DNA of 64,000 nucleotides, from NCBI GenBank assembly GCA_964496795.1, contig CAZCAV010000004.1, positions 4,660-68,659 on the forward strand, given 5' to 3'. The translations under genes and the position numbers were made by a program. The first letter of the stretch is position 1. Each line of letters starts with the position of its first letter. Below the pieces are notes generated by a model. That model did not search any database. It saw only the letters and a program-made list of their open reading frames with translations, and was not told the origin of the DNA. This document shows positions 4,633 to 57,627 of this stretch, piece by piece. The DNA is from an uncultured Oscillospiraceae bacterium (lineage in GTDB: Bacteria; Bacillota; Clostridia; Christensenellales; CAG-138).

Positions 4633-4674
4633 CGCAGCAGAGCGGCGCCGGCATCAAGAAGAAATAAGGAGGCG

Positions 4675-44049: not shown

Positions 44050-45450
44050 ATGGAACCGCTTCGCCCCATACCCGCGCCCGTTCTTACCCTGCTTGACGCC
44101 GCCGTTTCGGGAAAGCTGCTGTGCGGCGAAAGCATTCAGGACGATTATTCTCACGACGAAATGCCGCTGTACGGCTCGTACCGGCCCGACGCGCTTGTGT
44201 TTCCGCAAAGCACCGCCGAGGTCGCCGCCGTTATGCGCGTCTGCTCTGAGGCAAACATTCCGGTTACGCCGCGCGGCGCGGGCACCGGCCTTGCCGGCGG
44301 CGCCGCGCCCGTCCGCGGGGGCGTCGTGCTTTCCCTTGAGCGCATGAACGCCGCGCCCGTGCTGGATGAAGCCAAGCTCTCCGTTCGTGTGCAGGCCGGC
44401 GTGCTTTTGAAGGACATCCAAAGCGTCTGCGCGCAGAAGGGCCTGTTCTATCCTCCCGATCCCGGCGAAAAAAACGCCACGATCGGCGGCAATGCGGCCA
44501 CAAACGCCGGCGGCATGCGCGCTCTGACATACGGGAGCACCCGCAGCTATATTCGGGCGATGACCGTTGTGCTACCGGACGGTCGGATATTGCAGCTTGG
44601 CGCCGACACTAAGAAAAACAGCACCGGCTATAATCTGCTGCAGCTCATCGTCGGCTCCGAGGGCACGCTGGGAATCATCACTGAGCTTACGCTTGCGCTC
44701 CTTCCGCAGCCCGGGAACGCAGTATGGCTCATAGCGCCCTTCGCCACCGACGCGGACTGCTTCGCAGCAGCCCTCAAGCTGCTTCACACAGCGCCCCAGC
44801 CGGAAACGCTCGAATACGCGGAAGCCGGCATCCTGCGTTCCGCCGAAAAACGGTTGGGACAAAGCATAGTGGATTCAAGCGCCGCCGCCTGCCTCATGGT
44901 CGGATACAGGGAATGCGGCTGCGTTCTATCCCCTTTTTTAGCTAAGACCGGGGAAACGCTCCTGTCCATGGGCGCCACAGATGTTCTATTGGCGGACGCC
45001 CCGCAGAGCGCGGCCCGTTTGCAAACCTTGCGGGACGGCTTTTTGGACGCTCTTCGAGCGGAAGCCGTCTGGATCGATGAAGCAGACGTCGCCATGCCGC
45101 TCGACAAGACCGGAGAGCTTCTTTCTCTGGCGCGCCGGCTTGGACGGGATCGTGCGCTGAGCGTTCGCGCATTCGGCCATATCGGCGACGGCAATCTGCA
45201 TATCTATCTGTGCGGAGACGGCGAGCGCGCTGATTTTCTTGCGCGCACGCAAAGCGTGATGCAGGCGCTTTATGCCGAGGCTGCAAAGCGCGGCGGGCTC
45301 GTTTCCGGCGAACACGGCGTCGGCTTTATCAAGCGGCCTTCTTTCCTCGCGCATACCGATCCCACCGCCCTGGAATTCATGCGCGCCGTCAAAGCCGTCT
45401 TTGACCCCGGCGGTATACTCAACCCCGGAAAAATCATCAGCAAAGAATAG
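44050..45450 (+). CDS. FAD-linked oxidase (GlcD / D-lactate-dehydrogenase-like)
   Basis: The product has VTPRGAGTGLAGGA and [24 protein letters not shown], plus the C-terminal SGEHGVG. Confidence 0.85.
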   Translation: MEPLRPIPAPVLTLLDAAVSGKLLCGESIQDDYSHDEMPLYGSYRPDALVFPQSTAEVAAVMRVCSEANIPVTPRGAGTGLAGGAAPVRGGVVLSLERMNAAPVLDEAKLSVRVQAGVLLKDIQSVCAQKGLFYPPDPGEKNATIGGNAATNAGGMRALTYGSTRSYIRAMTVVLPDGRILQLGADTKKNSTGYNLLQLIVGSEGTLGIITELTLALLPQPGNAVWLIAPFATDADCFAAALKLLHTAPQPETLEYAEAGILRSAEKRLGQSIVDSSAAACLMVGYRECGCVLSPFLAKTGETLLSMGATDVLLADAPQSAARLQTLRDGFLDALRAEAVWIDEADVAMPLDKTGELLSLARRLGRDRALSVRAFGHIGDGNLHIYLCGDGERADFLARTQSVMQALYAEAAKRGGLVSGEHGVGFIKRPSFLAHTDPTALEFMRAVKAVFDPGGILNPGKIISKE

Positions 45451-45537
45451 CCCCCCGCAGCGCACGCCGGAAGCGCAGCCGGCTGCGTCTGTTCTTTCCC
45501 TTCGCCGCCGTACACGGGCAGTTGCCAAGCGTGTTGG

Positions 45538-46559
45538 TTATCTCTGAACCCTTCCGCTGGCATTGCCGTTCACCAACGCCATGACCTCGTCCACGCTGAC
45601 CATATTAAAGTCGTGCTCAATGGAATGCTTCAGGCAGCTGGCTGCAACAGCGTAGTGGATCGCTTTCATGTCCTCCATTTCCATAAGCTGGGAATAGATC
45701 AGCCCTCCGCCAAAGGAATCTCCGCCGCCAACACGATCTACGATATGGACCCTGTATGTCGGTGAAAACAGAGCCTCTCCGTTCGTATACAGCATCGCCG
45801 CCCAGTCATTATCATTGGCGCTGATACTGCCGCGAAGCGTGATCGCTACCTTGCGAAATCCAAACCTGTCTACCAGTTTTTTCGCAACCGAGATATATCC
45901 TTTTTGATCCAGCCGTCCAACGCAGATATCGCTGTTATCTGCTTCGATGCCAAATACGTCTTTTGCATCCTCTTCATTTCCGATACAAATATCCACATAA
46001 GGCATAAGCTTCGTAAGAACTTCGTTTGCCTTGCTTTTTGGCCACAACTTATTGCGATAATTCAGGTCGCATGACACTGTTGCATGGTGCTTCCTGGCCG
46101 CTTTGCAAGCTTCCAGTAATATATCCGGCAGATGCCCGCCCAATGCAGGCGTAATACCCGTCCAGTGAAACCAATCTGCGCCTTCGAAAATCGCGTCCCA
46201 GTCAAAATCGTCCGGTTCGGCTTGTGCAATTGCCGAATCTGCCCGATCATAAATCACTTTGGAAGCGCGCTGGGACGCGCCTTTTTCTACAAAAATACAC
46301 CCAGTCGTTTGCCTCCGCGCACCATGTAATTCGTATCAACGCCGTTCTTGCGCATTTCGTTTACTGCGCACTGCCCTATTTCAGTTGCAGGCACCTTTGT
46401 GACAAACGCGGCATTGATGCCGAAGTTTGCAAGGGAAACAGCGACATTTGCTTCGCCGCCTGCATATGAAACCTCAAATCTGTCGGCCTGTACAAATCTT
46501 TGATAACCCTCCGGATTCAGCCGCATCATGATCTCGCCAAATGTTACAACCTTTTTCAT
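45538..46559 (-). pseudogene. kdgK: PfkB-family 2-dehydro-3-deoxygluconokinase (KdgK-like) with a -1 frameshift
   Basis: The N-terminal part (ATG 46559, MKKVVTFGEIMMRLNP ... GKRLGVFL*) stops at 46287. The adjacent frame reads ..FVEKGASQRASKVIYDRADS.. and runs to 45538. The junction is at the A5 run 46291-46295 (T5 on the coding strand). Confidence 0.75.
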
Positions 46560-46592
46560 TAGAACCTCCATTGCCAGTTTGATATTCTCTTG

Positions 46593-47852
46593 TTATGAAA
46601 GCAGGTATTGCTCAGCGAAGGCCTTCAACGCTTTCTCAAAGCACAGGTTGGGAACTCTGGACATGCCTGCGCCGATCAGACCGCCCTGCCAGTTGAACAT
46701 TCCCCCGTGAATGGCCGGACATATCCCTGTTTTAAGCACTCTGCGTATATCGATCCCCACAGGTAAAAAGTCGAAATCCAGATTGGGAATCGGAAAATTA
46801 TAGTTTTTCTCTATGCTGATATCATGCATCTCTTTCGTCTGTCGAATGCTTTCCAAAAGTGTCATACCCCTTAAGCTGCATACGATCGGGCTCGCCGCCG
46901 CGGCAAATCCGCCCATACCATAGCATTCTACAACGCAGGAGTCGCCCATCCATGGCAGTTGGTCCTTCTCCGTGAATTCCGATGAAGTGTATCGTCCCTG
47001 CATCATGGGCGCGGGCGCAGTAAACCATTGTCCTGGCAGACCGGCAATTTTTATGCCGAACTCTTTCCCGTTTCCGCACAGCGCCGTAACCATCGTCGAA
47101 TATGGCGTGCCATCCGCCGCAACAAGCGCCGCTCTTGCCGCTGCCTGGCCATAGCAATGGAAAAAGCGAGGCGTATCGACAATATATCTGACCGCCTTCA
47201 TGATCCTGCTCTTGGAGCAATTCAGTTCAAACAACGTCGGAAGCATTATCTTGTCATATATATAATCGCATGCCGTCTGGCGCGTATGGTTTTCATCGCC
47301 CATCTGCATGCTTTCCGCAAGGATCGGCTTGATCGGCAGCCCTCCGATAGTATGCAGCGCTTCCACCATGAGCGGGAACAGCTCTTCACGCATGTACCGC
47401 AAATTATCCGCAATGCCTTTGGAATACAGCCCCCAGCCGCAGAAGCCGCCCTGAAACGGCCCCTCAGCCGGAAATGTGGCGGCGGTTGTTTGATTGAACC
47501 TGTCCTGCACGACGTTCATTACGACAGATTTTGTAATGATGCCCGTACCCGCGCCTACCGTATTGTGGTCGAGTGCGCTCGAAATCTTGATCTCTCCCGC
47601 CGCGATGCGTTCGACAGCTTCCTTTTCATCCTGAGCCCATCCCTCAAACAGCATCGCGCTGACCATGCCGCGCTTATGCAGCATGACCATATCTTTGTAG
47701 TCGATGGGCGGGCCCGAATGAATAATCATGTGATCCTCAAGGCCATCCACGCACTCGATCGCCGGCTTCATATCTGTCCAGACGGGATCGCTGTCCAGCA
47801 GCATGTGAACCGTTTTGTTGTTGGCTTCAGCTATTTTTTCTTTAATATCCAT
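46593..47852 (-). CDS. DUF1116 (YlbE-like) protein
   Basis: The 419-aa product resembles E. coli YlbE-type proteins by eye and is adjacent to fdrA. Confidence 0.7.
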   Translation of the reverse strand: MDIKEKIAEANNKTVHMLLDSDPVWTDMKPAIECVDGLEDHMIIHSGPPIDYKDMVMLHKRGMVSAMLFEGWAQDEKEAVERIAAGEIKISSALDHNTVGAGTGIITKSVVMNVVQDRFNQTTAATFPAEGPFQGGFCGWGLYSKGIADNLRYMREELFPLMVEALHTIGGLPIKPILAESMQMGDENHTRQTACDYIYDKIMLPTLFELNCSKSRIMKAVRYIVDTPRFFHCYGQAAARAALVAADGTPYSTMVTALCGNGKEFGIKIAGLPGQWFTAPAPMMQGRYTSSEFTEKDQLPWMGDSCVVECYGMGGFAAAASPIVCSLRGMTLLESIRQTKEMHDISIEKNYNFPIPNLDFDFLPVGIDIRRVLKTGICPAIHGGMFNWQGGLIGAGMSRVPNLCFEKALKAFAEQYLLS

Positions 47853-47872
47853 AATATGCGTCCCCGCCGCCT

Positions 47873-48034
47873 TTACAACAGTTTATCCAGCAAAGCTTGT
47901 ATCTCAGGATTGATCTCTACAGGCGGCATCCATGCAAGCTGGACGACTTTGCATGATTGCGACTCGATCGCATCAAAAAAACTTTGCAATCCAATGTTTA
48001 TTACCCTTAGCTTTGTATTGTCGCATTCCTTCAT
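47873..48034 (-). other. 53-codon ORF equivalent to the detached C-terminal tail of FdrA
   Basis: The ORF is below the track cutoff. It reads MKECDNTKLRVINIGLQSFFDAIESQSCKVVQLAWMPPVEINPEIQALLDKLL*. It starts 4 nt after the fdrA stop in another frame, and the frame stays open back to ATG 48052. Confidence 0.45.
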
Positions 48035-48038
48035 GTGC

Positions 48039-49574
48039 TCATCTCCCTTCATTCAGCGCCGTCATCAGCGCCGCGGCCAAGCGAGTGCTCTGATAATTAC
48101 TGTCGGTTACTATTACGCCTGCATCCTTCAGCTTTTCTGCCTGCAGGTATATACCCTGCGGATCTTCTGCCGAGCCGCAAATACTGGATATAACGGTTAT
48201 ATGCCTCTCGCGGATCGCAGCCTTGGCTTCTTTGGCAAATTCACCGGCAGGGTCCTTGGCAACGCCGGGACCCGTTATAAAATCCAGCAGGATAACAGCA
48301 ACGCTTTCATCCTGAATCTCTTCCCTGAATCTTTTCAATCTGATCTCCGGATCAAATACCGGATGAGGGGAGCTTTTGGTGAATTCCTCACTGCCAAGAT
48401 CCAAAACTGAGTGCCCTTCCGATTTCAGAGACGATAACAGCTTATCTGCATACGCCGTATTCAGGTTGCTGTGCAATTTTACGTTCGCAACATTGCGGCT
48501 GAAGAAAATGAGGCCTTCCTCTGCAAACGTGCCACCGCAATACAGCCCCCGGAAATATTTTTGTTTTTTGCTGTATCCTGACATTTGCTTATGTACTATG
48601 GAAGCGATTTCCTCTTCCGAAAAGCCTAAGCCGTCTGTATTTCCGCCCAATAACTGCACCGCAGTTTTTGCGGCTTCTTCAAGGCTGAACGCACTGTATA
48701 CCGTGTGGCCAGCAAACATATCCTCTTCTGCGCCCAAAAATACCGCAACCACAGGCTTGCATGCGTGATCTGCAAAACAAAGCACATCGTTCATAACGTT
48801 TTGGTCGGCCAGCTTGGAAACCAGAACTATAACTTCTGTCTCCCGATCTTTTTCCAGTCTCCTGATTCCTTCACGCATCATCATGCCCCGAACGTCTCGA
48901 TAAAGATCGCGCCCCCCCGTGCCAATCAGCGATGAAAGGCCATAGCCCAGTCTTTCGAGAATACAGCCGACTTCCTGTGCGCCGCTGCCTGACGCTCCGA
49001 CAATGCCTACCGGCCCCTTTTTATAAGTGCTGCCAACCGCCAAAGCCACGCCTTTGATAAAGGCTACTCCGCAATCCGGGCCCATCATAAGACGTCCTTT
49101 GGAGAGCGCCAACTCTTTAAGGCGTATTTCATCCTCAATCGATACATTATCGCTGAACATAAAAACATCCAGATTTTTGTTCAGCGCTTTTTCCGCCTCT
49201 GCCGCGGCATACTCGCCCGGCAAAGAAATCTGAACCAAATCGAAGGCATCCGCTTCCATATCTATATCGTCAAGGCTATGATACTCCTTCTCTGCTCCCG
49301 TCTTTTTTCCATGATTGAGCATCTCCTGTATTTGGTGAATTGCTTGTTCCACCAGCGAAGCTTCCTCTCCGGCAATCGCTATGATCAGGTCGTTAGCGCT
49401 TGTATCCTCGGGAACAGTAAATCCCAGCTTGGCGGCAATTTCTCTGTTGGCCGCCGTACCCATACTGACGTTACTGCTTTCTACCCCCAGCATGGCTTTG
49501 GCTGTGTCGGTAGCAGACATAAGAGAAACGGAATCAATATACCGATTTTTAATGATAACAACTTCCTGAATCAA
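48039..49574 (-). CDS. fdrA: FdrA-family protein (succinyl-CoA-synthetase-alpha-like), probably C-terminally truncated
   Basis: The product has IIKNRYIDSVSLMS, MFSDNVSIEDEIRLKELA, MGPDCG and GIVGASGSGAQE, closely paralleling E. coli FdrA. It is 511 aa versus about 555 aa for FdrA. Confidence 0.8.
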   Translation of the reverse strand: MIQEVVIIKNRYIDSVSLMSATDTAKAMLGVESSNVSMGTAANREIAAKLGFTVPEDTSANDLIIAIAGEEASLVEQAIHQIQEMLNHGKKTGAEKEYHSLDDIDMEADAFDLVQISLPGEYAAAEAEKALNKNLDVFMFSDNVSIEDEIRLKELALSKGRLMMGPDCGVAFIKGVALAVGSTYKKGPVGIVGASGSGAQEVGCILERLGYGLSSLIGTGGRDLYRDVRGMMMREGIRRLEKDRETEVIVLVSKLADQNVMNDVLCFADHACKPVVAVFLGAEEDMFAGHTVYSAFSLEEAAKTAVQLLGGNTDGLGFSEEEIASIVHKQMSGYSKKQKYFRGLYCGGTFAEEGLIFFSRNVANVKLHSNLNTAYADKLLSSLKSEGHSVLDLGSEEFTKSSPHPVFDPEIRLKRFREEIQDESVAVILLDFITGPGVAKDPAGEFAKEAKAAIRERHITVISSICGSAEDPQGIYLQAEKLKDAGVIVTDSNYQSTRLAAALMTALNEGR

Positions 49575-49597
49575 GGAATTCCCCTCCTTCTGCGCAT

Positions 49598-51178
49598 CTA
49601 CAGTTTCTCACGCCGGATTTCCGGCGTCTGTCGGTTTCCTTTCGTAATAACAATGCGATATTTGCCCTCTTCTTCTGCGGAATCCGATCGATAATGGCAT
49701 CCTATGCTCTCCTTTCTTTCATAGGCAGACAGAACTACCAAATATGCTGTTAAGACGTCGTTGCGTAATCGTCTGGCTTGGTATGAATACGTTACACCGT
49801 CCAATTCATCGTAAATCGCCTGCAGATTGTGCAGGCCGGCTGCCATTGCCGTGCCGCAGCGTATCGCACCGGCGGCTTTTTCCGTTTCGTAAGCCATTTG
49901 TTCCCGCATTTTCCGTATGTTTCGTGTAGGTGGATTGTCCTGATCCTTTTTTTCATAAACCTGCGGCATGTTTCTGGCATGACGATGCTCTGTCGCATAT
50001 GCTGCGGCACTATTTCCGGCAATAGCGCCAAAAACCATCGTTTCCAAGCCGGCATTTCCGCCAATACGATTGGCGCCGTGAAGGCCGCCAAGTGCCTCGC
50101 CGCAGACAAACAAGCCGTCCAAATTGGTACGGCAATCTGGGTCGCAGAACACGCCGCCCAACGAGGTATGCGGCGCAGGCGCGATTTCCATCGGAGAAAC
50201 GCTTATATCAACGTTGATATTTAGATAGCGCTGATAGTAATCATGATATACTTCCTTAAGCTTTTTGGCGCCGACTCCGGTGGCGTCCAAATAAACGCCT
50301 CCATGTTCTGTTCCGTTTCCGTCATGCAGCTCCTTGGCAATGTATCGCGCCATGATATCTTTTCCAACCCGTTCAGCCCGGTCGTCATACCGCAGCATGA
50401 ATCGCTCGCCGCGATTATTTCTGAGAACTGCGCCATCATAGAACATGGTTGTAATAACACTTTTCCCTGCCAGTTTTTTGGGCCATACCGCCACGCTGGG
50501 TTCGAATTGCACAAATTCCATGTCCGTGAGTTCAGCACCCGCGTCATACGCCATAGCAACCGCATCCCCCGCTGTATCCCGTGCATTGGTTGTAAACGGA
50601 TAAATGTTGGAATAGCCGCCGGCAGCCACAATCACCGCCTTTGCCAAAATCGGCAGCCAAACGTTGTCCCGCCTGCTATAACACAACGCTCCGCACACGC
50701 CGTCCTCATCGTTTTTGATCAATTCCATGGCCCGCAGATCGAGCCAGGAAATATTCCCGCGCGCTGTAAGCTTTGCTCTTAGTTTTGAAAGTATTGCTCC
50801 GCCTGCATCGTTTCCCACGCTGACGACGCGGGGAAAGGTAGCGCCGAGAGGGCGAAGCAGCTGATAGGAACCGTCGGGATTCGTGTTGAAGCGAATCCCG
50901 AGCCGCTCCAGTGCCGGCATAAGAGTCAAGCTGTTTTGGCATAGCGTTCTGACCAGCGCCACATCTCCCTGTCCGCATCCGGATTCCAGGGTATCCTTTT
51001 CAAAGCATTCTACGCTATCGTCAGGATGCAAGGGCATGTTGAACCCATGGACAAAGGGGCTGTTGCCTCCGCCAGCCGACAATACCGTGATTCTTAGCGT
51101 CGGATTCTGTGTCGAACAGGCGTCGGCAGCCGTGAGTCCCGCAAGACCGCCGCCAATGATCAAAACGTCGCTTTCCAA
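49598..51178 (-). CDS. FAD-dependent flavoprotein of the L-aspartate-oxidase / fumarate-reductase family
   Basis: The product has the dinucleotide fold DVLIIGGGLAGL, the motif DMEFVQFEP, and GGLHGANRIGGN. Confidence 0.75.
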   Translation of the reverse strand: MESDVLIIGGGLAGLTAADACSTQNPTLRITVLSAGGGNSPFVHGFNMPLHPDDSVECFEKDTLESGCGQGDVALVRTLCQNSLTLMPALERLGIRFNTNPDGSYQLLRPLGATFPRVVSVGNDAGGAILSKLRAKLTARGNISWLDLRAMELIKNDEDGVCGALCYSRRDNVWLPILAKAVIVAAGGYSNIYPFTTNARDTAGDAVAMAYDAGAELTDMEFVQFEPSVAVWPKKLAGKSVITTMFYDGAVLRNNRGERFMLRYDDRAERVGKDIMARYIAKELHDGNGTEHGGVYLDATGVGAKKLKEVYHDYYQRYLNINVDISVSPMEIAPAPHTSLGGVFCDPDCRTNLDGLFVCGEALGGLHGANRIGGNAGLETMVFGAIAGNSAAAYATEHRHARNMPQVYEKKDQDNPPTRNIRKMREQMAYETEKAAGAIRCGTAMAAGLHNLQAIYDELDGVTYSYQARRLRNDVLTAYLVVLSAYERKESIGCHYRSDSAEEEGKYRIVITKGNRQTPEIRREKL

Positions 51179-51179
51179 A

Positions 51180-52859
51180 TCACTTTACCCAAATTCCGCC
51201 CTTAGCCATGGAACCCACGTTCCTTACAAACAGATTCAGATACGCAGGATATTGATCGCTTGGAAACTCCCAGTGGAATTCCGCCATCCTTTTCTCCATT
51301 TCTTCGTCGCTGATGCACAGCGTCAACCTTCTGCCCGGGATATCGATATCTACTTCATCCCCCTCTGCTATCACGCCCAGCGGACTGCCAAGCGCCGCTT
51401 CGGGAGAAACATATCCTATGGACAGTCCGGATGTACCGCCGGAAAAGCGTCCGTCCGTGATAATCGCGCAGGAATTATACAGTTCGGGTTCTCCCTTGAG
51501 CTCTTCCTGGAAAGTAAAAGCCGTTGTACCAAATCGCCCGCGAAGGCCCATAAACCGCAGCACGCAGCAGTCACCCGGATGGATTCGACCGGCGCGCAAG
51601 GCTTGGATACCCTCTTCCAGAGAATCGAACACGCGCGCACGTCCCTTGTATTTCATAAGATGCGGCTGAACGCCTGCAATTTTGATTATCGCTCCTTCCG
51701 GGGCCAAATTCCCATACAATACGCCAATGCCGGGCTCTGACATAACGGGCTTATCCAGCGTATGAATAACGTCCCTGTCGTAAACAACGGCATCTTCCAC
51801 GTTTTCTTCTATGGTATGTCCTGTAACAGTCAGGCAGTCTTTGTTCAGTTTCGGCATAAGCTCCTTGAGCATCGCGCGCATACCGCCTGCCAAGTCGAAG
51901 TCTTTAACGCTATAAGGTCCGCTGGGTGCAAGATGCGAGAGCAGCGGGATATCGTTCGATGCTTCGTCAAAGCACTTCCACCAAGGCAGGTCATAGCCAG
52001 CCTCGTTTGCGATCGCGGGAATATGCAGTATCAAGTTCGACGACGCAGCAACAGCCATGTCCAGCATAATTGCGTTCTTGATAGACTTCTCCGTAATGAT
52101 GCGCCGCGCAGTGATCCCTTCATAAACCAGATTCATAATCTGCTTTCCTGCCAGATAAGCCACTTTATAGATGGCAGAACTGGTCGCGCACATTGTGGAG
52201 TTTCCCGGAAGCGTCATGCCAAGGGCTTCAGCGATCATGCACATGGAATTTGCGGTTGTCATGGATGTACAGGCGCCGCAGATTCCCCATGAGTTTTCGA
52301 TCAACCCATTATATACATCCATATCCATTTTCCCGGCCTTGGCTGTCCCGACCTTATCCTGCGCATGAATATGCAGGACCTCCTGTCCCCGGAACGTGCC
52401 CAAAGGCATGTATCCGCCGGTTACAAGCACCGTAGGAATATCCAATCTCGCCGCGCCCATTAAATGACCCGGAACAATAGAATCACAGGCGGAAAGCATG
52501 ACCATGCCGTCAAAGAAATTGCCATCCACCGTTAATTCCACCTGATCGGCTATGGAATTGCGGCTTGGCACCTCAATATACTTTGGATCTTTGAGAACCA
52601 TACCGTCACATATGCCGGTAGTCATTACCTCCAGGGGAAGTCCGCCGGCCTCGCGCACGCCCTGCTTGACGCGGGCCGCCAATTTATCCAGATGAACATG
52701 CCCGGGATTGTATTCATTCCAGCTGTTGACAATGGCGATAAGAGGGCGTTTTTGCTCTTCTTCCGTATATCCCATGCCACACATCAATCCGCGTCTGCAT
52801 TCGGACGCCTCGCCGAATTCCCAGCAGCTGCGCATCTCTTCATACTTAACTTTTGTCAT
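51180..52859 (-). CDS. IlvD/Edd-family dehydratase (dihydroxy-acid or sugar-acid dehydratase)
   Basis: I prefer ATG 52859 (MTKVKYEEM) as the start, with a GAGG-type RBS. The product has PLIAIVNSWNE, TTGICDGM and SACDSIVPG. Confidence 0.85.
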   Translation of the reverse strand: MTKVKYEEMRSCWEFGEASECRRGLMCGMGYTEEEQKRPLIAIVNSWNEYNPGHVHLDKLAARVKQGVREAGGLPLEVMTTGICDGMVLKDPKYIEVPSRNSIADQVELTVDGNFFDGMVMLSACDSIVPGHLMGAARLDIPTVLVTGGYMPLGTFRGQEVLHIHAQDKVGTAKAGKMDMDVYNGLIENSWGICGACTSMTTANSMCMIAEALGMTLPGNSTMCATSSAIYKVAYLAGKQIMNLVYEGITARRIITEKSIKNAIMLDMAVAASSNLILHIPAIANEAGYDLPWWKCFDEASNDIPLLSHLAPSGPYSVKDFDLAGGMRAMLKELMPKLNKDCLTVTGHTIEENVEDAVVYDRDVIHTLDKPVMSEPGIGVLYGNLAPEGAIIKIAGVQPHLMKYKGRARVFDSLEEGIQALRAGRIHPGDCCVLRFMGLRGRFGTTAFTFQEELKGEPELYNSCAIITDGRFSGGTSGLSIGYVSPEAALGSPLGVIAEGDEVDIDIPGRRLTLCISDEEMEKRMAEFHWEFPSDQYPAYLNLFVRNVGSMAKGGIWVK

Positions 52860-52948
52860 ACCTACTTGCCTCATTTCTTTTTTTGTTTTTATATCATGAT
52901 CTGTATCGGATCAAAACGCATCATCTACCATGCAATCAATTGCGCCGT

Positions 52949-53848
52949 CTATGCTTTGGCCGCCGTCAATTGTAATGGTTTGCCCGACAATATATGTTCA
53001 TCCGCCGAGTACATCGCCAGAAACAAAGCCGCAGGTGTTCCACAGCCTTTTTCGTTTACCAGCGAGGTGGCAATGGTTGCTGTATCGGTAATTCCTTGCT
53101 CGATCATTTTGTCCACAAGGCTTTGATACCCCATGGTTATCTCCATACAGGCATCCAACGCGCCTGCCGCTTTGTCCGCGCCTTGTACCAGATACCCCAG
53201 CACGTCGTAGTCGTGACCCATCAAAAGGTCCTGCGGCTTCAGAGCACGAATTTTTGCAAGCGAGGCCTGATAGTCCCTAAGGTATTGATAAAAGGCTATT
53301 CCCTGCGTGACCGTTCCGTTGCCCTGCAAGGAATCTCCACAAATCACCGCATGTGTTTTATCGTCGACCCAAGCGACGCAGTCGCTGTCATGACCCGGCG
53401 TGTAAATAACGGACAGCCGATCCGTCAGCCGTTCTCCGTCTTTCAAAATGCGATCCGCCTCTACTCCTCTTAAATATAGCTGTGGTTTTGGACTGTTCTT
53501 GGGATATTGAGAGCGAATCCTTTTTGCGACGGCCGCAGGCTTATTCAGTGCTTCCTGCCCCTGTTCGATCGTCGCGATCCGTATCTGAGGCTGCAATTCT
53601 TTGATTTTTGCGTGTCCTCCAATGTGGTCTCCATGGCTGTGGGTATGGAGCAGCCATGAGATATCGCTCAACGCAAGTCCTTCTGTCCGCAATGCAGGCA
53701 GAATGACGTTCACAACTATGTCGTCATTTGCGCCGCTGTCAATCAGGCAGGGTTCCTCCCCTTTTACCAGCACGCAGCCGCTCCAAATTGACGAAAACGG
53801 CGTTTTTAACAGGTAAATACCGTCAACAACTTCCGTAAAATGTTCCAT
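52949..53848 (-). CDS. MBL-fold metallo-hydrolase
   Basis: The product has the LLHTHSHGDHIGG motif. Confidence 0.8.
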   Translation of the reverse strand: MEHFTEVVDGIYLLKTPFSSIWSGCVLVKGEEPCLIDSGANDDIVVNVILPALRTEGLALSDISWLLHTHSHGDHIGGHAKIKELQPQIRIATIEQGQEALNKPAAVAKRIRSQYPKNSPKPQLYLRGVEADRILKDGERLTDRLSVIYTPGHDSDCVAWVDDKTHAVICGDSLQGNGTVTQGIAFYQYLRDYQASLAKIRALKPQDLLMGHDYDVLGYLVQGADKAAGALDACMEITMGYQSLVDKMIEQGITDTATIATSLVNEKGCGTPAALFLAMYSADEHILSGKPLQLTAAKA

Positions 53849-53852
53849 GCGC

Positions 53853-55043
53853 TCACACTGCCCCTCTGATTCTCAATATCTCCCGATAGGCCTGTCGGGC
53901 TACGCCTAATTCTTCATTGGCCGCAACGATTGATACAACAACTTTGGAAGTATCCGTCGAAATAACGCCCTCTCTCAGAGAACAGTTTTTGTCCTGGCTG
54001 ATAGCGACGTCGAGAAAGCTGAGCCTGCTGCATACCATTTCTCTGATTTCTGCGGAATTTTCGCCAATTCCTCCTGTGAACACCAATTGATCTAATCCTC
54101 CAAGCTCCACATAAAAGGCGCCGATATATCGCAGAACATCTGTTACAAAAACATCTACCGCCAGCTTGGCAAGATCGTTGCCCGACTGCGCCTCCCGCAT
54201 GACTTCCCGCAGATCGTTGGATACCTGTGACAAGCCCTTCAGACCTCCGTTTTGAGAGAGGCCATCCGTAATTTCATTCAGGGGCATGCCTTCGTTCAGC
54301 AGGAACGGGACGATATACGGATCCACCGTCCCGCAACGATTTGCGTGCATAACACCGGTCTGCAGGGAAAAGCCAAAGCTGCTGTCTGTGCTTTTTCCAT
54401 CTCTGATAGCGCAAACGGAGCAGCTTCCCCCAAGATGGCAGGAGATAATGCGATCGGATTTCCCGTATTCCCGGGCCTTCGATGCAACATAACTGTGTGA
54501 AGCGCCATGATACCCCATCTTTTCTATCCCATATTTCTTATACCATGTATACGGGATGGAGTACATCCGCCGTTCCTGGGGAATGGTCTTGTGAAAGGCG
54601 GTTTCAAACACGCCCACCATAGGCACGCTCCGGATAATTTCCTGGAACTGGGAAATGGCTTCGATATATGCCGCATTGTGAACCGGCGCAATGAACAAAT
54701 ACTCCCGCATGCCATTTATTACTTCATCCGTTAGTAAATGAACGCCAGTATATCCTTTCGAAAGAACTGACTTAAAGCCAATGGCTTCGATTGCCTGAAC
54801 GGATATTTTTGCGGATTCAGCCAATTCGTTCAAAAACAGTCTGATGCCGCTGGAATAATCTGGTATGCACAAGCCATCCCGATACACATGGTTGCCAAAG
54901 ACGGTATCATGATAATTCAAAATGGCCGAATCCGTGCTGCCAACCCGTTCGATTTTCACATCGCTAAGCACCGTTTCTGACGGCATGCTGTAAAGCTTAA
55001 ACTTCAGCGAAGTACTGCCAACGTTACAAATCAGCAAGTTCAT
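53853..55043 (-). CDS. Acetate/propionate/butyrate-kinase-family protein (divergent paralogue)
   Basis: The start is ATG 55043 ([15 protein letters not shown]), preceded by GAGGGAG. The product has HLGGSCSV and GGIGENS. The usual HRVVHGG region is divergent (FKSVLSKG). Confidence 0.75.
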
Positions 55044-55097
55044 ATTCGACGTCTCCCTCTCCAGTTCGTTATCTGTCATCGTGTTATCCGGACCTGC

Positions 55098-55307
55098 TCA
55101 CCGCTCTCGGGTGATGCCAAGTCCATCCATGGACGTCAGAATGTTCTGGATATGGAGCTTGGTCTGCAGCTGCCGCACATTGATTTTCTCGATATCAGTC
55201 GACAGGGAAAAGGCTGTGCCCGCAGCTTCTCCGCTTACTGCGCAGACAGGAATCGCCCGCGTGACATTCCACATATCATCCGATGCGCTGATACATCGTC
55301 CTGCTAT
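55098..55307 (-). pseudogene. C-terminal remnant (~70 aa) of an FAD-dependent oxidoreductase (FAD_oxidored family)
   Basis: The remnant reads ..[45 protein letters not shown].., the typical C-terminus of roughly 430-460-aa enzymes. There is no upstream coding continuation. Confidence 0.6.
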
Positions 55308-56204
55308 GTGCGGGCGTTGACCGTTGTGCTTCCGTCTGGTGAAATCGTTCATTTGGGCGGAAAGGTTGTGAAAAACAGCACAGGCTATTCTCTTAAGGAT
55401 TTAATCATTGGTTCTGAAGGAACGCTGGGTATCATTACGGAAGCTGTATTAAAGCTGATCCCGCTTCCCCGGATCGCGATATCATTGCTGATTCCTTTTG
55501 CAACCATTTCTCAAGCAATAGAATGCGTGCCCAAATTGATTAAGAGCCATGTTGCCTTGACCGCTGTCGAATTCATGGAGCGCTCAACGATTCTGTTCAG
55601 CGAAGAATACCTTGGCAAGCGATTCCCGGGCACCAAAGACCCCGCTTACCTTTTGCTGACTGTTGACGGTGACAGCTTGCAGATGGTGAATGAAGGTCTG
55701 GATCATCTGGCGGACATCTGCCTGACATGCGGCGCAACAGACGTTCTCATTGTCGACACCGTTGAAAGAAAAGAATCCGTCTGGTCAGCACGCGGCGCTT
55801 TTCTGGAGGCCATCAAGGCCTCCACCACCGAAATCGACGAGTGTGATGTAGTCGTCCCTCGAAACAAAATAGCCGATTTCGTCAATTACACTCAAGCAGT
55901 TGCCGGTCAGTTCAAGGTGCGAATTCATACTTTTGGGCATGCAGGGGACGGAAATCTTCACATATACATATGCCGTGATCATTTATCCAAGAAGGAATGG
56001 ACAGCCATACGAGATGGCGTGTTCAAGCTGCTGTATGCCGAAACATGCCGGATTAAGGGGCTCGTATCCGGTGAACATGGAATTGGATATGCCAAAAAAG
56101 AGTATTTACTGGATTGCTGCGGGGCCGTACAGGTACAGCTCATGAGAGGGATCAAGGCTGCTTTTGATCCAAATTGTATCCTTAATCCGGAAAAAATAAT
56201 GTAA
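55305..56204 (+). pseudogene. C-terminal two-thirds of a GlcD-like FAD-linked oxidase; the FAD-binding N-domain is missing
   Basis: From [46 protein letters not shown] onward it is colinear with residues ~170-466 of the 44050..45450 product. Upstream of ~55305 the frame is merely antisense to the other remnant. Confidence 0.7.
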
Positions 56205-56262
56205 TATGCGGCTGACGCCAGCACGTTACATGTGCAATTTGTATATCATATAAAATTTTTTA

Positions 56263-56291
56263 TTGACAAGCGGATGCGTGCGCGCTATAAT
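56263..56291 (+). promoter_or_regulatory. Perfect consensus sigma-A promoter
   Basis: The elements are TTGACA (56263-56268), a 17-nt spacer and TATAAT (56286-56291). An A/T-rich tract, atataaaattttttat, lies immediately upstream. Confidence 0.75.
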
Positions 56292-56329
56292 GCCACACAT
56301 GCAACAGATAAGGAAAGGAGATAGCAGCC

Positions 56330-56488
56330 ATGATACGCAGTCATTGTAAAGCCCTTCGCGCCGTGGCGGCTGTTTCCGCTTTCGCCTTTACCGGTCTGGC
56401 TCGATTTTTTGCGGGCCTGTTTTGCTATTACCGCTATTATTGCGGCATATGTGCATCCGACCGGTTAGGCTGTCCGTTTATGGCATAG
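56330..56488 (+). CDS. 52-codon leader/small ORF rich in Cys and Tyr
   Basis: AAGGAAAGGAG lies 9 nt upstream of ATG 56330. The product is MIRSHCKALRAVAAVSAFAFTGLARFFAGLFCYYRYYCGICASDRLGCPFMA*. The ORF is below the track length cutoff. Confidence 0.45.
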   Translation: MIRSHCKALRAVAAVSAFAFTGLARFFAGLFCYYRYYCGICASDRLGCPFMA

Positions 56489-56515
56489 CGCGCGGCGCTG
56501 TTTCTTCGTGATTAC

Positions 56516-56551
56516 GGCAGTTCCGATTGGTCGGAACTGCCTTTTATTTTT
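56516..56551 (+). terminator. Intrinsic terminator/attenuator upstream of the ABC operon
   Basis: The perfect 11-bp stem ggcagttccga/tcggaactgcc has a ttgg loop and is followed by ttttattttt. It ends 35 nt before the SBP start. Confidence 0.8.
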
Positions 56552-56586
56552 CCGGAAAGACAATAACAATGCTAAGGAGAAAAACA

Positions 56587-57627
56587 ATGAAAAGACTCGT
56601 ATGTATGATTCTGGCGCTCGTCATGATGGGCGCGCTCCTCGGCTGCGCAGGCGCCTCCGCGCCCGCCGAAGCCACCGCTGCTTCCACGCCCGCCGAAGCA
56701 GCGGAGCCCGCTGAAACAGCCGCGGCCGAAGAGTCCGCCGCAGAAACCAAGGTATATGTCGTCGGCATTTTGCAGCAGCTTGAGCATCAGGCGCTGGACG
56801 CCGCCACGGAGGGCTTCAAGGCCGCGCTGATCGACCTGCTGGGCGAGGACGGCGTAGAATTCGATTATCAAAACGCACAGAACGATCCCACCAACTGCGC
56901 CACGATCGCCACCAAGTTCGTCAATGAGGGCGTCGATCTCATCATGGCGAACGCCACCACCGCCCTGCAGGCCGCGGCGGCCGCAACGGGCGATATCCCG
57001 ATCGTCGGCACCTCCATTACGGACTATGTTTCCGCGGGCGTTATCGATTCCAACGACGCGCCCGGCCGCAACGTGACAGGCGCTTCGGACCTTGCGCCCA
57101 TCGGTGAGCAGGTCGATCTGCTGGCGGCTCTCTGCCCCGGCGCCAAGACCGTGGGCATCGTCTACTGCTCGGCGGAGGCCAACTCCGTATTTCAGGCCGA
57201 GGCTGCTCAGACCGCGCTGGAAGCCCTGGGCATGAGCGTAAACATCTATACCGTATCCGATTCCAACGACATTCAGGCGGTCGTTACCAAGGCCGTGTCC
57301 GAGGTGGACGCCATCTATATCCCCACCGACAACACCATGGCGGACAACATGGAGATCGTCAAGAACCTGACCGTTCCCGCCAAGCTTCCCGTGATCGCGG
57401 GCGAGGAGAACATGTGCGCGGCAGGCGGACTGGCGACGCTGTCCATCAGCTACTACTCCATGGGCTACTCCGCAGGCCAAATGGCCTATGAAATACTCGT
57501 AAACGGCGCGGATCCCGCGACAATGCCCATCCGCTATGCCGAGGAGGTCACGCTGAAGTACAACAGCGAGATCGCCGCGCTCATCGGCTGGACGATTCCA
57601 GAGGACATGGTCGCCATAGGCGAATAA
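56587..57627 (+). CDS. ABC transporter substrate-binding lipoprotein (ABC_sub_bind / TrpX-like family)
   Basis: The start is ATG 56587, after AAGGAGA. The product has the signal MKRLVCMILALVMMGALLGC and an Ala/Glu-rich linker. Confidence 0.75.
   Translation: MKRLVCMILALVMMGALLGCAGASAPAEATAASTPAEAAEPAETAAAEESAAETKVYVVGILQQLEHQALDAATEGFKAALIDLLGEDGVEFDYQNAQNDPTNCATIATKFVNEGVDLIMANATTALQAAAAATGDIPIVGTSITDYVSAGVIDSNDAPGRNVTGASDLAPIGEQVDLLAALCPGAKTVGIVYCSAEANSVFQAEAAQTALEALGMSVNIYTVSDSNDIQAVVTKAVSEVDAIYIPTDNTMADNMEIVKNLTVPAKLPVIAGEENMCAAGGLATLSISYYSMGYSAGQMAYEILVNGADPATMPIRYAEEVTLKYNSEIAALIGWTIPEDMVAIGE

Follow-up and report, generated by a model that had tools for sequence, protein, structure and literature searches.

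What does an FdrA/DUF1116 gene pair do when it stands beside sugar-acid genes and a relative of acetate kinase, with neither a DUF2877 gene nor a carbamate kinase gene in sight? The question is raised by a 64,000-nucleotide stretch of DNA (the window; positions 4,660 to 68,659 of contig CAZCAV010000004.1, assembly GCA_964496795.1) from an uncultured Oscillospiraceae bacterium, the genome of which is a metagenome-assembled genome (MAG) of 2.15 Mb that is 74% complete. E. coli AllFGH, to whose families FdrA (AllF), DUF1116 (AllG) and DUF2877 (AllH) belong, is an oxamate carbamoyltransferase with the carbamate kinase AllK as its partner (PMC11326118, PMC9843812). The enzyme converts oxalurate and phosphate to oxamate and carbamoyl phosphate, from which AllK then forms ATP (PMC11326118, PMC9843812). 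On balance, we favour the interpretation that positions 45538-56204 of the window hold a copy, acquired by horizontal transfer and by now partly decayed, of a catabolic operon conserved among anaerobes, the core of which would be phosphorolytic, with the acetate-kinase-like protein, Ack', making the ATP.

The preliminary description of this DNA had suggested surveying the neighbourhoods of FdrA-DUF1116 pairs for intact versions. We scanned one genome per species with the DUF1116 protein of the window (AllG' or G'), which yielded 80 loci (L009-L088) of a conserved operon. The loci were mapped by tblastn, an AllH profile and clustering of open reading frames (ORFs), and the counts given below were restricted to the 53 loci of at least 15 kb. 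AllG' falls among more than 120 database clusters at 70-86% identity. The 80 loci span five phyla, with carriers in Clostridia (Christensenellales/Limiplasma, Oscillospiraceae and Lachnospiraceae), Erysipelotrichales, Verrucomicrobiota, Lentisphaerota (among them the cultured Oligosphaera ethanolica) and Planctomycetota. The genes recur in the order MBL-SDR-IlvD-Flv-F-s-G-Ack'-AllH, where MBL is a metallo-beta-lactamase-fold hydrolase, SDR a short-chain dehydrogenase/reductase, IlvD an IlvD/Edd-family dehydratase, Flv a NadB/FrdA-like flavoprotein and s a small ORF between F (FdrA/AllF-like) and G (DUF1116/AllG-like). Eda and KdgK genes are often added, and there are several rearranged variants. 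The individual genes were found as follows:

F, s and G: 53 of 53 loci each
Flv: 49 of 53
IlvD: 48 of 53
Ack': 47 of 53
MBL: 44 of 53
SDR: 43 of 53
Eda: 34 of 53
KdgK: 32 of 53

Flv adjoins F in nearly all loci. The recurring accessory genes encode aldose 1-epimerase, Gfo/Idh/MocA and FAD_oxidored oxidoreductases, GH43 and DUF5696 proteins, sugar ABC or TRAP transporters, and regulators of the LacI/PucR or AraC type; by their families, they point to sugars. No ureide genes recur in the 80 loci, and the linkage to a sugar-acid dehydratase route is conserved in dozens of genomes, so that both the non-allantoin setting and the co-linearity proposed at the outset are borne out. Literature searches found no paper describing this type of operon, in agreement with the initial remark that no described pathway has this composition. 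EtfB, EtfA and GlcD-like genes adjoin the operon in L011, L027, L046, L075, L076, L081 and L101/L106, in independent architectures, and LarA (lactate racemase) lies beside them in L011, L027 and L076. The EtfB-EtfA-GlcD set resembles, by family, an electron-bifurcating lactate/glycolate dehydrogenase, and its position next to the operon, at times with LarA, is a hint that a 2-hydroxy acid is a product of the pathway.

A six-frame search of the window (E<=10, filters off) did not find AllH (PF11392), and the reported presence of FdrA and DUF1116 without DUF2877 or carbamate kinase is therefore true of the window. As a property of the system, absence of DUF2877 did not hold up: AllH is present in 44 of the 53 loci, and among ten genomes with AllH-less loci that were searched, eight have it elsewhere in the genome, in three of them apparently just past the stretch examined. 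Carbamate kinase, on the other hand, was found in none of 81 places (the 80 loci and the window). It had been envisaged that intact operons might always include both proteins; most do have DUF2877, and none has carbamate kinase. From these comparisons of gene content, the novelty that is both real and conserved is Ack' in the place of carbamate kinase. The genome has a single AllH gene, on contig C13 next to a second FdrA/AllG pair, and a single carbamate kinase gene, on contig C20. The C13 triad (L004:4437-15213) has a more canonical AllH-FdrA-AllG composition with a long AllG of 474 aa. It is flanked by thiolase-like and DUF35 genes and by genes for a cyclase and for the FAD and Mo subunits of a xanthine-dehydrogenase-family enzyme; it has no adjacent carbamate kinase gene, and its layout also differs from that of the E. 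coli allantoin cluster.

Ack' passes the subfamily model TIGR00016 (318.2 bits vs. a cut-off of 293.4) and misses every equivalog model. The preliminary description had noted an altered HRVVHGG region in this kinase, and the alteration is real: the motif GHRVxHGG, which reads GHRVLHGG in the housekeeping AckA of the same genome (contig C5), is GFKSVLSKG in Ack'. The position of the canonical Arg is occupied by Lys in 64 of 64 cluster-linked kinases, with His-Arg replaced by Tyr/Phe-Lys throughout. Decay as the origin of the odd motif was considered and ruled out, since 13 orthologues have the GFKSVLSKG variant in common with the window. The residue changes in Ack' and those in Flv described below extend across whole families (64 of 64 and 62 of 62 sequences, respectively); as judged by alignment, they are for this reason not decay. 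Two kinase subtypes, GYKAVHGG and GFKTV[LI]SKG, share about 36-40% identity, and both pair with the single F-s-G clade of the 80 loci. In the reverse direction, F-s-G genes were present in all three contexts of window-kinase homologues that were looked up.

The genes of the window were identified by Pfam and NCBIfam profile searches. Eight closely packed genes, with intergenic gaps of 1-74 bp, occupy the minus strand between 45538 and 55079 in an operon-like manner, in the order Ack', MBL, IlvD/Edd, Flv, FdrA/AllF', s, DUF1116/AllG' and KdgK-type PfkB. Both sets of profiles confirm the gene positions and families given in the preliminary description, all on the minus strand. The genes listed there are correct; KdgK lies outside the range given there, 46593-55043, and the list omitted the s ORF (47874-48034), an SDR remnant and two truncated genes at 55098-56204. 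The complete set, from kdgK to the far end of the island, is:

45538-46571, minus: kdgK (PfkB), frameshifted; ORFs 46287-46571 and 45538-46257 each match PF00294
46593-47852, minus: G', DUF1116/AllG-like subunit (PF06545, 227.8 bits, cut-off 27)
47874-48034, minus: s, 53-codon ORF between FdrA and AllG, with likeness to the F/G connecting segment
48039-49574, minus: F', FdrA/AllF-like subunit, SucD-like (PF00549 and PF02629)
49598-51178, minus: Flv, NadB/FrdA-like flavoprotein (PF00890 and PF02910; FAD_binding_2 and Succ_DH_flav_C)
51180-52874, minus: IlvD/Edd-family dehydratase (PF00920 and PF24877)
52914-52994, minus: SDR remnant, last 27 codons (85% identical to the SDR of L106, residues 237-263 of 263)
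52949-53848, minus: MBL-fold hydrolase (PF00753)
53853-55079, minus: Ack', acetate/propionate-kinase-family paralogue (PF00871, 322.7 bits; TIGR00016, score as above)
55098-55352, minus: 3' remnant of an FAD_oxidored gene (PF12831), about 60 codons (70% identity to the L101 protein)
55305-56204, plus: 3' two-thirds of a GlcD-like FAD oxidase gene, without FAD_binding_4, about 165 N-terminal residues gone

Ack' probably starts at 55043, as in the preliminary description, and not at the ORF end, 55079. Promoter and terminator scans of 45000-56600 gave no more hits than shuffled sequences did (14 vs. 12.6 and 16 vs. 11.7); they revealed no clear internal terminator and speak neither for nor against co-transcription.

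The island, 45538-56204, is 10.7 kb long and has a GC content of 0.504, vs. 0.579 for the genome. An orthologue was found in none of 30 relatives, which carry the C13-type paralogue only. The closest relative of the island is a 58-kb metagenome contig (L101/L106/L107) with a GC content of 0.48-0.49. Protein identities between the two are 93% for IlvD, 89% for G, 77% for PfkB, 76% for Ack' (compared with the kinase of L101), 75% for F, 67% for MBL and 64% for Flv. The gene order of the relative begins with Eda, a regulator, Gfo/Idh, a substrate-binding protein, two permeases, an epimerase, FAD_oxidored and Ack', and continues with MBL, SDR, IlvD, Flv, F, s, G, PfkB, EtfB, EtfA and a GlcD-like gene. 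The array is flanked by CI-repressor-like and ParB/ParA genes and by AAA_25, serine recombinase, DNA methylase and D5-type primase genes; given the ParB/ParA and recombinase/primase flanks, the sugar operon of the relative looks like the cargo of an integrative mobile element.

Comparison with the relative reveals four lesions in the window copy. First, the SDR gene has been deleted except for its last 27 codons. The MBL protein is 67% identical to that of L106 over residues 2-286 and then runs out of frame into the SDR remnant, so that at the adjacent deletion it has lost its last residues, about 11, and gained an out-of-frame tail. Second, kdgK is frameshifted by one missing base in a run of five T near 46291-46295, which leaves ORFs of 94 aa and 239 aa; two overlapping tblastn pieces match the single 340-aa PfkB of L106 at 77%. 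Third, the FAD_oxidored remnant (55125-55304) and the 5'-truncated GlcD-like gene meet head to head at about 55305. The former is 70% identical to residues 339-398 of the 402-aa protein of L101, and 47% identical to that of L058; the latter, which belongs to the cluster-linked, Etf-associated type, aligns from residue 165-167 of its orthologues at 64% identity. In the closest relative, where FAD_oxidored lies directly upstream of Ack', the two genes are co-directional and 13 genes apart. We infer that the head-to-head junction is the product of an inversion with breakpoints in both genes. The reciprocal junction is missing from the window, which implies further deletion afterwards, and inversion followed by deletion is the simplest history of the 55305 junction. 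Fourth, the transporter, epimerase, Gfo/Idh, regulator, Eda, EtfB and EtfA genes are gone from the island, and none was found elsewhere in the assembly; neither an SDR orthologue nor AllH' was found in the assembly. A full-length GlcD-like FAD oxidase gene of the host (44050-45450, GC about 0.6) ends 87 bp from the island kdgK. The truncated GlcD-like gene is only 38% identical to it, which marks the two as unrelated paralogues and not as a duplication. Since SDR, transporter, regulator, Etf and Eda genes have been lost, kdgK is frameshifted and the island has no AllH' of its own, the full pathway is, by its gene content, probably not functional in this genome, though seven reading frames are open. 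The lesions thus support the possibility, raised early on, that this copy is a remnant, but its closest intact relative is likewise without AllH over about 40 kb.

The F' and G' subunits form a clade distinct from the AllF and AllG proteins of E. coli. F' scores 402.2 bits with NF004760, below the cut-off of 433, and is 32% identical to E. coli AllF, with the AllF domains HMA_AllF_N, CoA_binding and Ligase_CoA of Pfam present. Twelve charged or His residues, including the His of the PHP motif, match E. coli AllF in at least 97% of 73 clade members, and the same twelve are kept in the FdrA of C13. For G', identity is 34% with E. coli AllG and 60-89% with its orthologues in the 80 loci and L106. 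The C13 paralogues are closer to E. coli (FdrA 40%, AllG 44%), which places the window pair in a separate clade. An AlphaFold2 model of G' (pLDDT 88.7) matched in fold searches only the uncharacterised DUF1116 structure 3CLQ (Z 50.1, root-mean-square deviation 2.4 A, 411 residues aligned). A wider fold search aligned a C-terminal piece with enolase-superfamily capping domains at a Z of only about 5, and this was judged uninformative.

The small ORF s shows 43% identity with the AllF tail of E. coli (C-terminal residues 513-554, 42 residues) and 35% with the first 55 aa of the long AllG of C13. It is a separate ORF in 56 of the 81 places, fused to AllG in 23 and to FdrA in one, and it is called as a gene of 50-56 aa in L005, L006, L008, L101 and L104. 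A frameshifted FdrA tail was rejected as an explanation, given the separate ORFs and the gene calls in intact relatives. By these alignments s is a natural small subunit, the free-standing form of the segment that connects F and G. The modelled s-AllG' complex, in which the C-terminal helix of s sits on AllG', scored 0.78 (best control 0.00), a value reached by 58 of 80 solved complexes and by 2 of 110 mismatched pairs; model runs agree in at least 94% of contacts, with partner pLDDT of at least 68. This docking result may reflect likeness to 3CLQ, a long AllG that carries the segment fused.

Among the sugar-acid enzymes, the IlvD/Edd protein falls below the equivalog cut-offs for dihydroxy-acid dehydratase (TIGR00110, 523.6 vs. 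618.15; PRK00911, 524.1 vs. 644), and structures of dihydroxy-acid dehydratase and L-arabinonate dehydratase match it about equally; we regard it as a candidate aldonate dehydratase and the MBL-fold protein as a candidate lactonase. The best solved match of the SDR family of the intact operons is glucose 1-dehydrogenase. The best solved match of Flv is L-aspartate oxidase, yet Flv misses all NCBIfam equivalog cut-offs by a factor of about 2. In NadB/Frd proteins we take two His and two Arg residues to form the dicarboxylate site, one Arg being catalytic, and we apply the same residue roles to Flv. Glu replaces NadB His244 and Lys replaces Arg290 in 62 of 62 cluster-linked sequences, among which His351 and Arg386 are retained, the position of Glu121 is Pro in 52 (window included) and the His for covalent FAD is absent.

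The replacement of carbamate kinase by an ASKHA kinase, the absence of recurring ureide genes and the conserved link to aldose, aldonate and 2-keto-3-deoxy-acid enzymes suggest the logic of AllFGH applied to another acyl group. The sugar front end would consist of aldose 1-epimerase, a glucose-1-dehydrogenase-like SDR and/or Gfo/Idh/MocA protein, MBL lactonase and IlvD/Edd aldonate dehydratase, often with KdgK and Eda. The core module of Flv, AllF', s, AllG', usually AllH', and Ack' is a diverged relative of AllFGH, in which the F'-s-G'(-H') complex would cleave some other activated acyl compound with phosphate, and the acyl phosphate so formed would give up its phosphoryl group to ADP through Ack'. 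By analogy with the E. coli system, we consider this general scheme, in which phosphorolysis yields an acyl phosphate and ATP is then made from it, somewhat more probable than not, and the acyl-phosphate/ATP branch of the preliminary description is upheld as the most economical interpretation.

The identity of the acyl group can be suggested only tentatively. An acylpyruvate is a carbon isostere of oxalurate, and pyruvate is an isostere of oxamate. In a specific version, the dehydratase would produce a 2-keto-3-deoxy-aldonate, which Flv would oxidise at C4 (C3-C4 dehydrogenation) to a 2,4-diketo-3-deoxy acid, that is, an acylpyruvate. The complex would cleave the acylpyruvate to pyruvate and a hydroxyacyl phosphate (glycolyl, lactyl or glyceroyl), from which Ack' would form ATP and the free acid, and the linked GlcD-like/EtfAB dehydrogenase would then oxidise the freed lactate or glycolate. 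No FAH-type hydrolase recurs in the loci. That F'-s-G'(-H') is such a C-C phosphorylase and Ack' a hydroxyacyl-phosphate kinase is conceivable, and we put forward the acylpyruvate version as a whole with considerable doubt; which way the reaction runs, that it yields an acyl phosphate and that it starts from an acylpyruvate are all proposals. Sulfoquinovose (through a sulfo-Entner-Doudoroff route), ascorbate and asparagine-derived substrates were considered and rejected, with no sulfoquinovosidase, sulfite-handling or Ula genes recurring in the loci.

Several observations weigh against our interpretation. We know of no FrdA/NadB-type flavoprotein that oxidises a C4 carbinol, and the proposed Flv step is further weakened by L042, L044, L051 and L067, which carry F-s-G-Ack'-H without Flv. 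KdgK and Eda would together make a complete conventional route through 2-keto-3-deoxygluconate, so that hexonates would not need the core. Lys in the place of Arg might be harmful to ordinary acyl-kinase chemistry instead of retuning it. As for the decay of the window copy, the kdgK frameshift could be an assembly error of the MAG. Two MAGs are without any AllH in the genomes searched, E. coli without allH keeps about 7% of oxamate formation, and no AllH was found over about 40 kb of the closest relative. The operon may thus be able to do without AllH, and we may have overstated how far the window copy is dead; given the relative, the absence of AllH here may predate the decay and be ancestral to this type of island.

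These points lend some weight to the alternative that survives best, though we still think it rather unlikely, namely that the window copy is a working variant without AllH. In that case F'-s-G' would suffice or would borrow the AllH of C13, and the lost genes would be dispensable or lie in the unassembled 25% of the MAG. The AllH-less stretch of the closest intact relative, seven intact ORFs with family-specific motifs, the partial activity restored by allFG alone in E. coli (about 7%) and the 74% completeness of the MAG would fit such a variant. They are opposed by four independent lesions, by the loss of the island's own upstream region and of the transporter, and by the failure to find Eda, an SDR orthologue or AllH' in the assembly.

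A reversed direction of the core is less probable again. Ack' would spend ATP to make an acyl phosphate, the SucD-like F'-G' would pass the acyl group to CoA or another acceptor in the manner of Pta, and Flv would then act on the activated acid. FdrA does have CoA_binding and CoA-ligase domains, acetate kinases are reversible, and E. coli AllFGH was assayed in the synthetic direction, with carbamoyl phosphate and oxamate as substrates (Kim & Kim 2024, PMC11326118). The physiological pairing in E. coli nevertheless runs toward ATP (PMC9843812), and enzymes acting on CoA esters do not recur in the loci. What is more, the operon, with its transporters, glycosidases, KdgK and Eda, is catabolic, and fermenting anaerobes benefit from substrate-level phosphorylation.

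It is very improbable that the module is still a carbamoyltransferase for oxamate or another ureide in which Ack' merely stands in for carbamate kinase. Most orthologous loci do contain all three AllFGH families, and carbamoyl phosphate and acetyl phosphate are isosteric. Against this, sugar genes and not allantoin or ureide genes recur in the 80 loci, none of which has carbamate kinase; AllG' and F' are further from E. coli (34% and 32%) than the C13 pair (44% and 40%); and the genome has both a true carbamate kinase and a separate AllH-FdrA-AllG triad beside xanthine-dehydrogenase genes. Least credible of all is incidental co-localisation, with F'-s-G'-Ack' and the sugar-acid genes travelling together while serving unrelated pathways: gene order is variable and minimal F-s-G-Ack'-H loci exist (L051, L067), but the link of IlvD and Flv to F-s-G holds in 48-49 of the 53 loci, in five phyla and through several rearranged architectures, and the intergenic gaps in the window are 1-74 bp.

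Phosphorolysis to an acyl phosphate, with ATP formed by Ack', therefore remains the interpretation that we prefer. Recognition of AllFGH as an enzyme dates only from 2024 (Kim & Kim 2024, PMC11326118). One reaction only is known for it. At least 80 species of anaerobes from gut and sediment have the AllFGH scaffold next to sugar-acid genes and to an acetate-kinase relative that appears to be retuned. If our interpretation is true, the operon would represent a new substrate-level phosphorylation. In the acylpyruvate version, anaerobes would gain ATP from an otherwise ATP-neutral, non-phosphorylative oxidation of sugars, and acylpyruvate cleavage would be the carbon analogue of oxalurate phosphorolysis. 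If the general interpretation holds, a function would also be assigned to paralogues of DUF1116, DUF2877 and FdrA, for which the present annotation is 'acyl-CoA synthetase' or 'hypothetical'. The interest lies in the operon family. The window copy itself is a remnant, a decaying cargo island that metabolic reconstructions of this genome should not list among the working pathways.

How does this system compare with those already known? With E. coli allFGHK it shares the F and G families (and H in most loci), the adjacency and order of F and G, the connecting segment of about 45 residues, which in E. coli is the C-terminal tail of AllF, the conserved charged residues and His of AllF, and a kinase for phosphoryl transfer encoded alongside. 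It differs in that F' and G' are only 32-34% identical to their E. coli counterparts, the connecting segment is a separate small gene, the kinase is of the acetate-kinase (ASKHA) family, the context is one of sugars and aldonates with a flavoprotein and not of allantoin degradation, and AllH is absent from the window copy. On AllH (here), kinase partner and context, as far as gene content can tell, the window system falls outside the oxamate carbamoyltransferases.

Ack' aligns over its full length with acetate/propionate kinases (PDB 7FJ7, 1G99 and 2IIR; E about 1e-78 to 1e-73) and keeps the N-terminal NxGSxSxK, HN, HGxSH, R-x-G-D and NEE motifs of acetate kinases. Unlike these, the cluster-linked proteins have Tyr/Phe-Lys for the His-Arg of GHRVxHGG, the window subtype also has SKG for HGG, and Ack' is only 34-36% identical to the housekeeping AckA of the same genome. 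Flv shares with NadB, FrdA and TfrA the two-domain fold family and one His/Arg carboxylate-binding pair, and is a soluble single-subunit protein like NadB; its clade differs in having Glu for the second His and Lys for the catalytic Arg.

In the non-phosphorylative routes for L-fucose and L-rhamnose, an aldose 1-dehydrogenase, a lactonase, a dehydratase (IlvD/Edd or enolase-type) and a 2-keto-3-deoxy-acid 4-dehydrogenase lead to a 2,4-diketo acid, which an FAH-type hydrolase then splits (PMC11199699). The operon resembles these routes in its glucose-1-dehydrogenase-like SDR, candidate lactonase and IlvD/Edd dehydratase, with aldose epimerase and glycosidases nearby, and its GlcD-like dehydrogenase could take a glycolate or lactate product. 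Pentose 'route III' follows the same non-phosphorylative scheme. Hydrolysis at the end of the fucose, rhamnose and pentose routes gives pyruvate and lactate or glycolate and brings no gain of ATP. The operon differs from these routes in that no FAH-type hydrolase or dedicated 4-dehydrogenase is recognisable, and Flv, F'-s-G'(-H') and Ack' stand in their place. By analogy with AllFGH and AllK, these proteins would exchange hydrolysis for phosphorolysis and so yield ATP.

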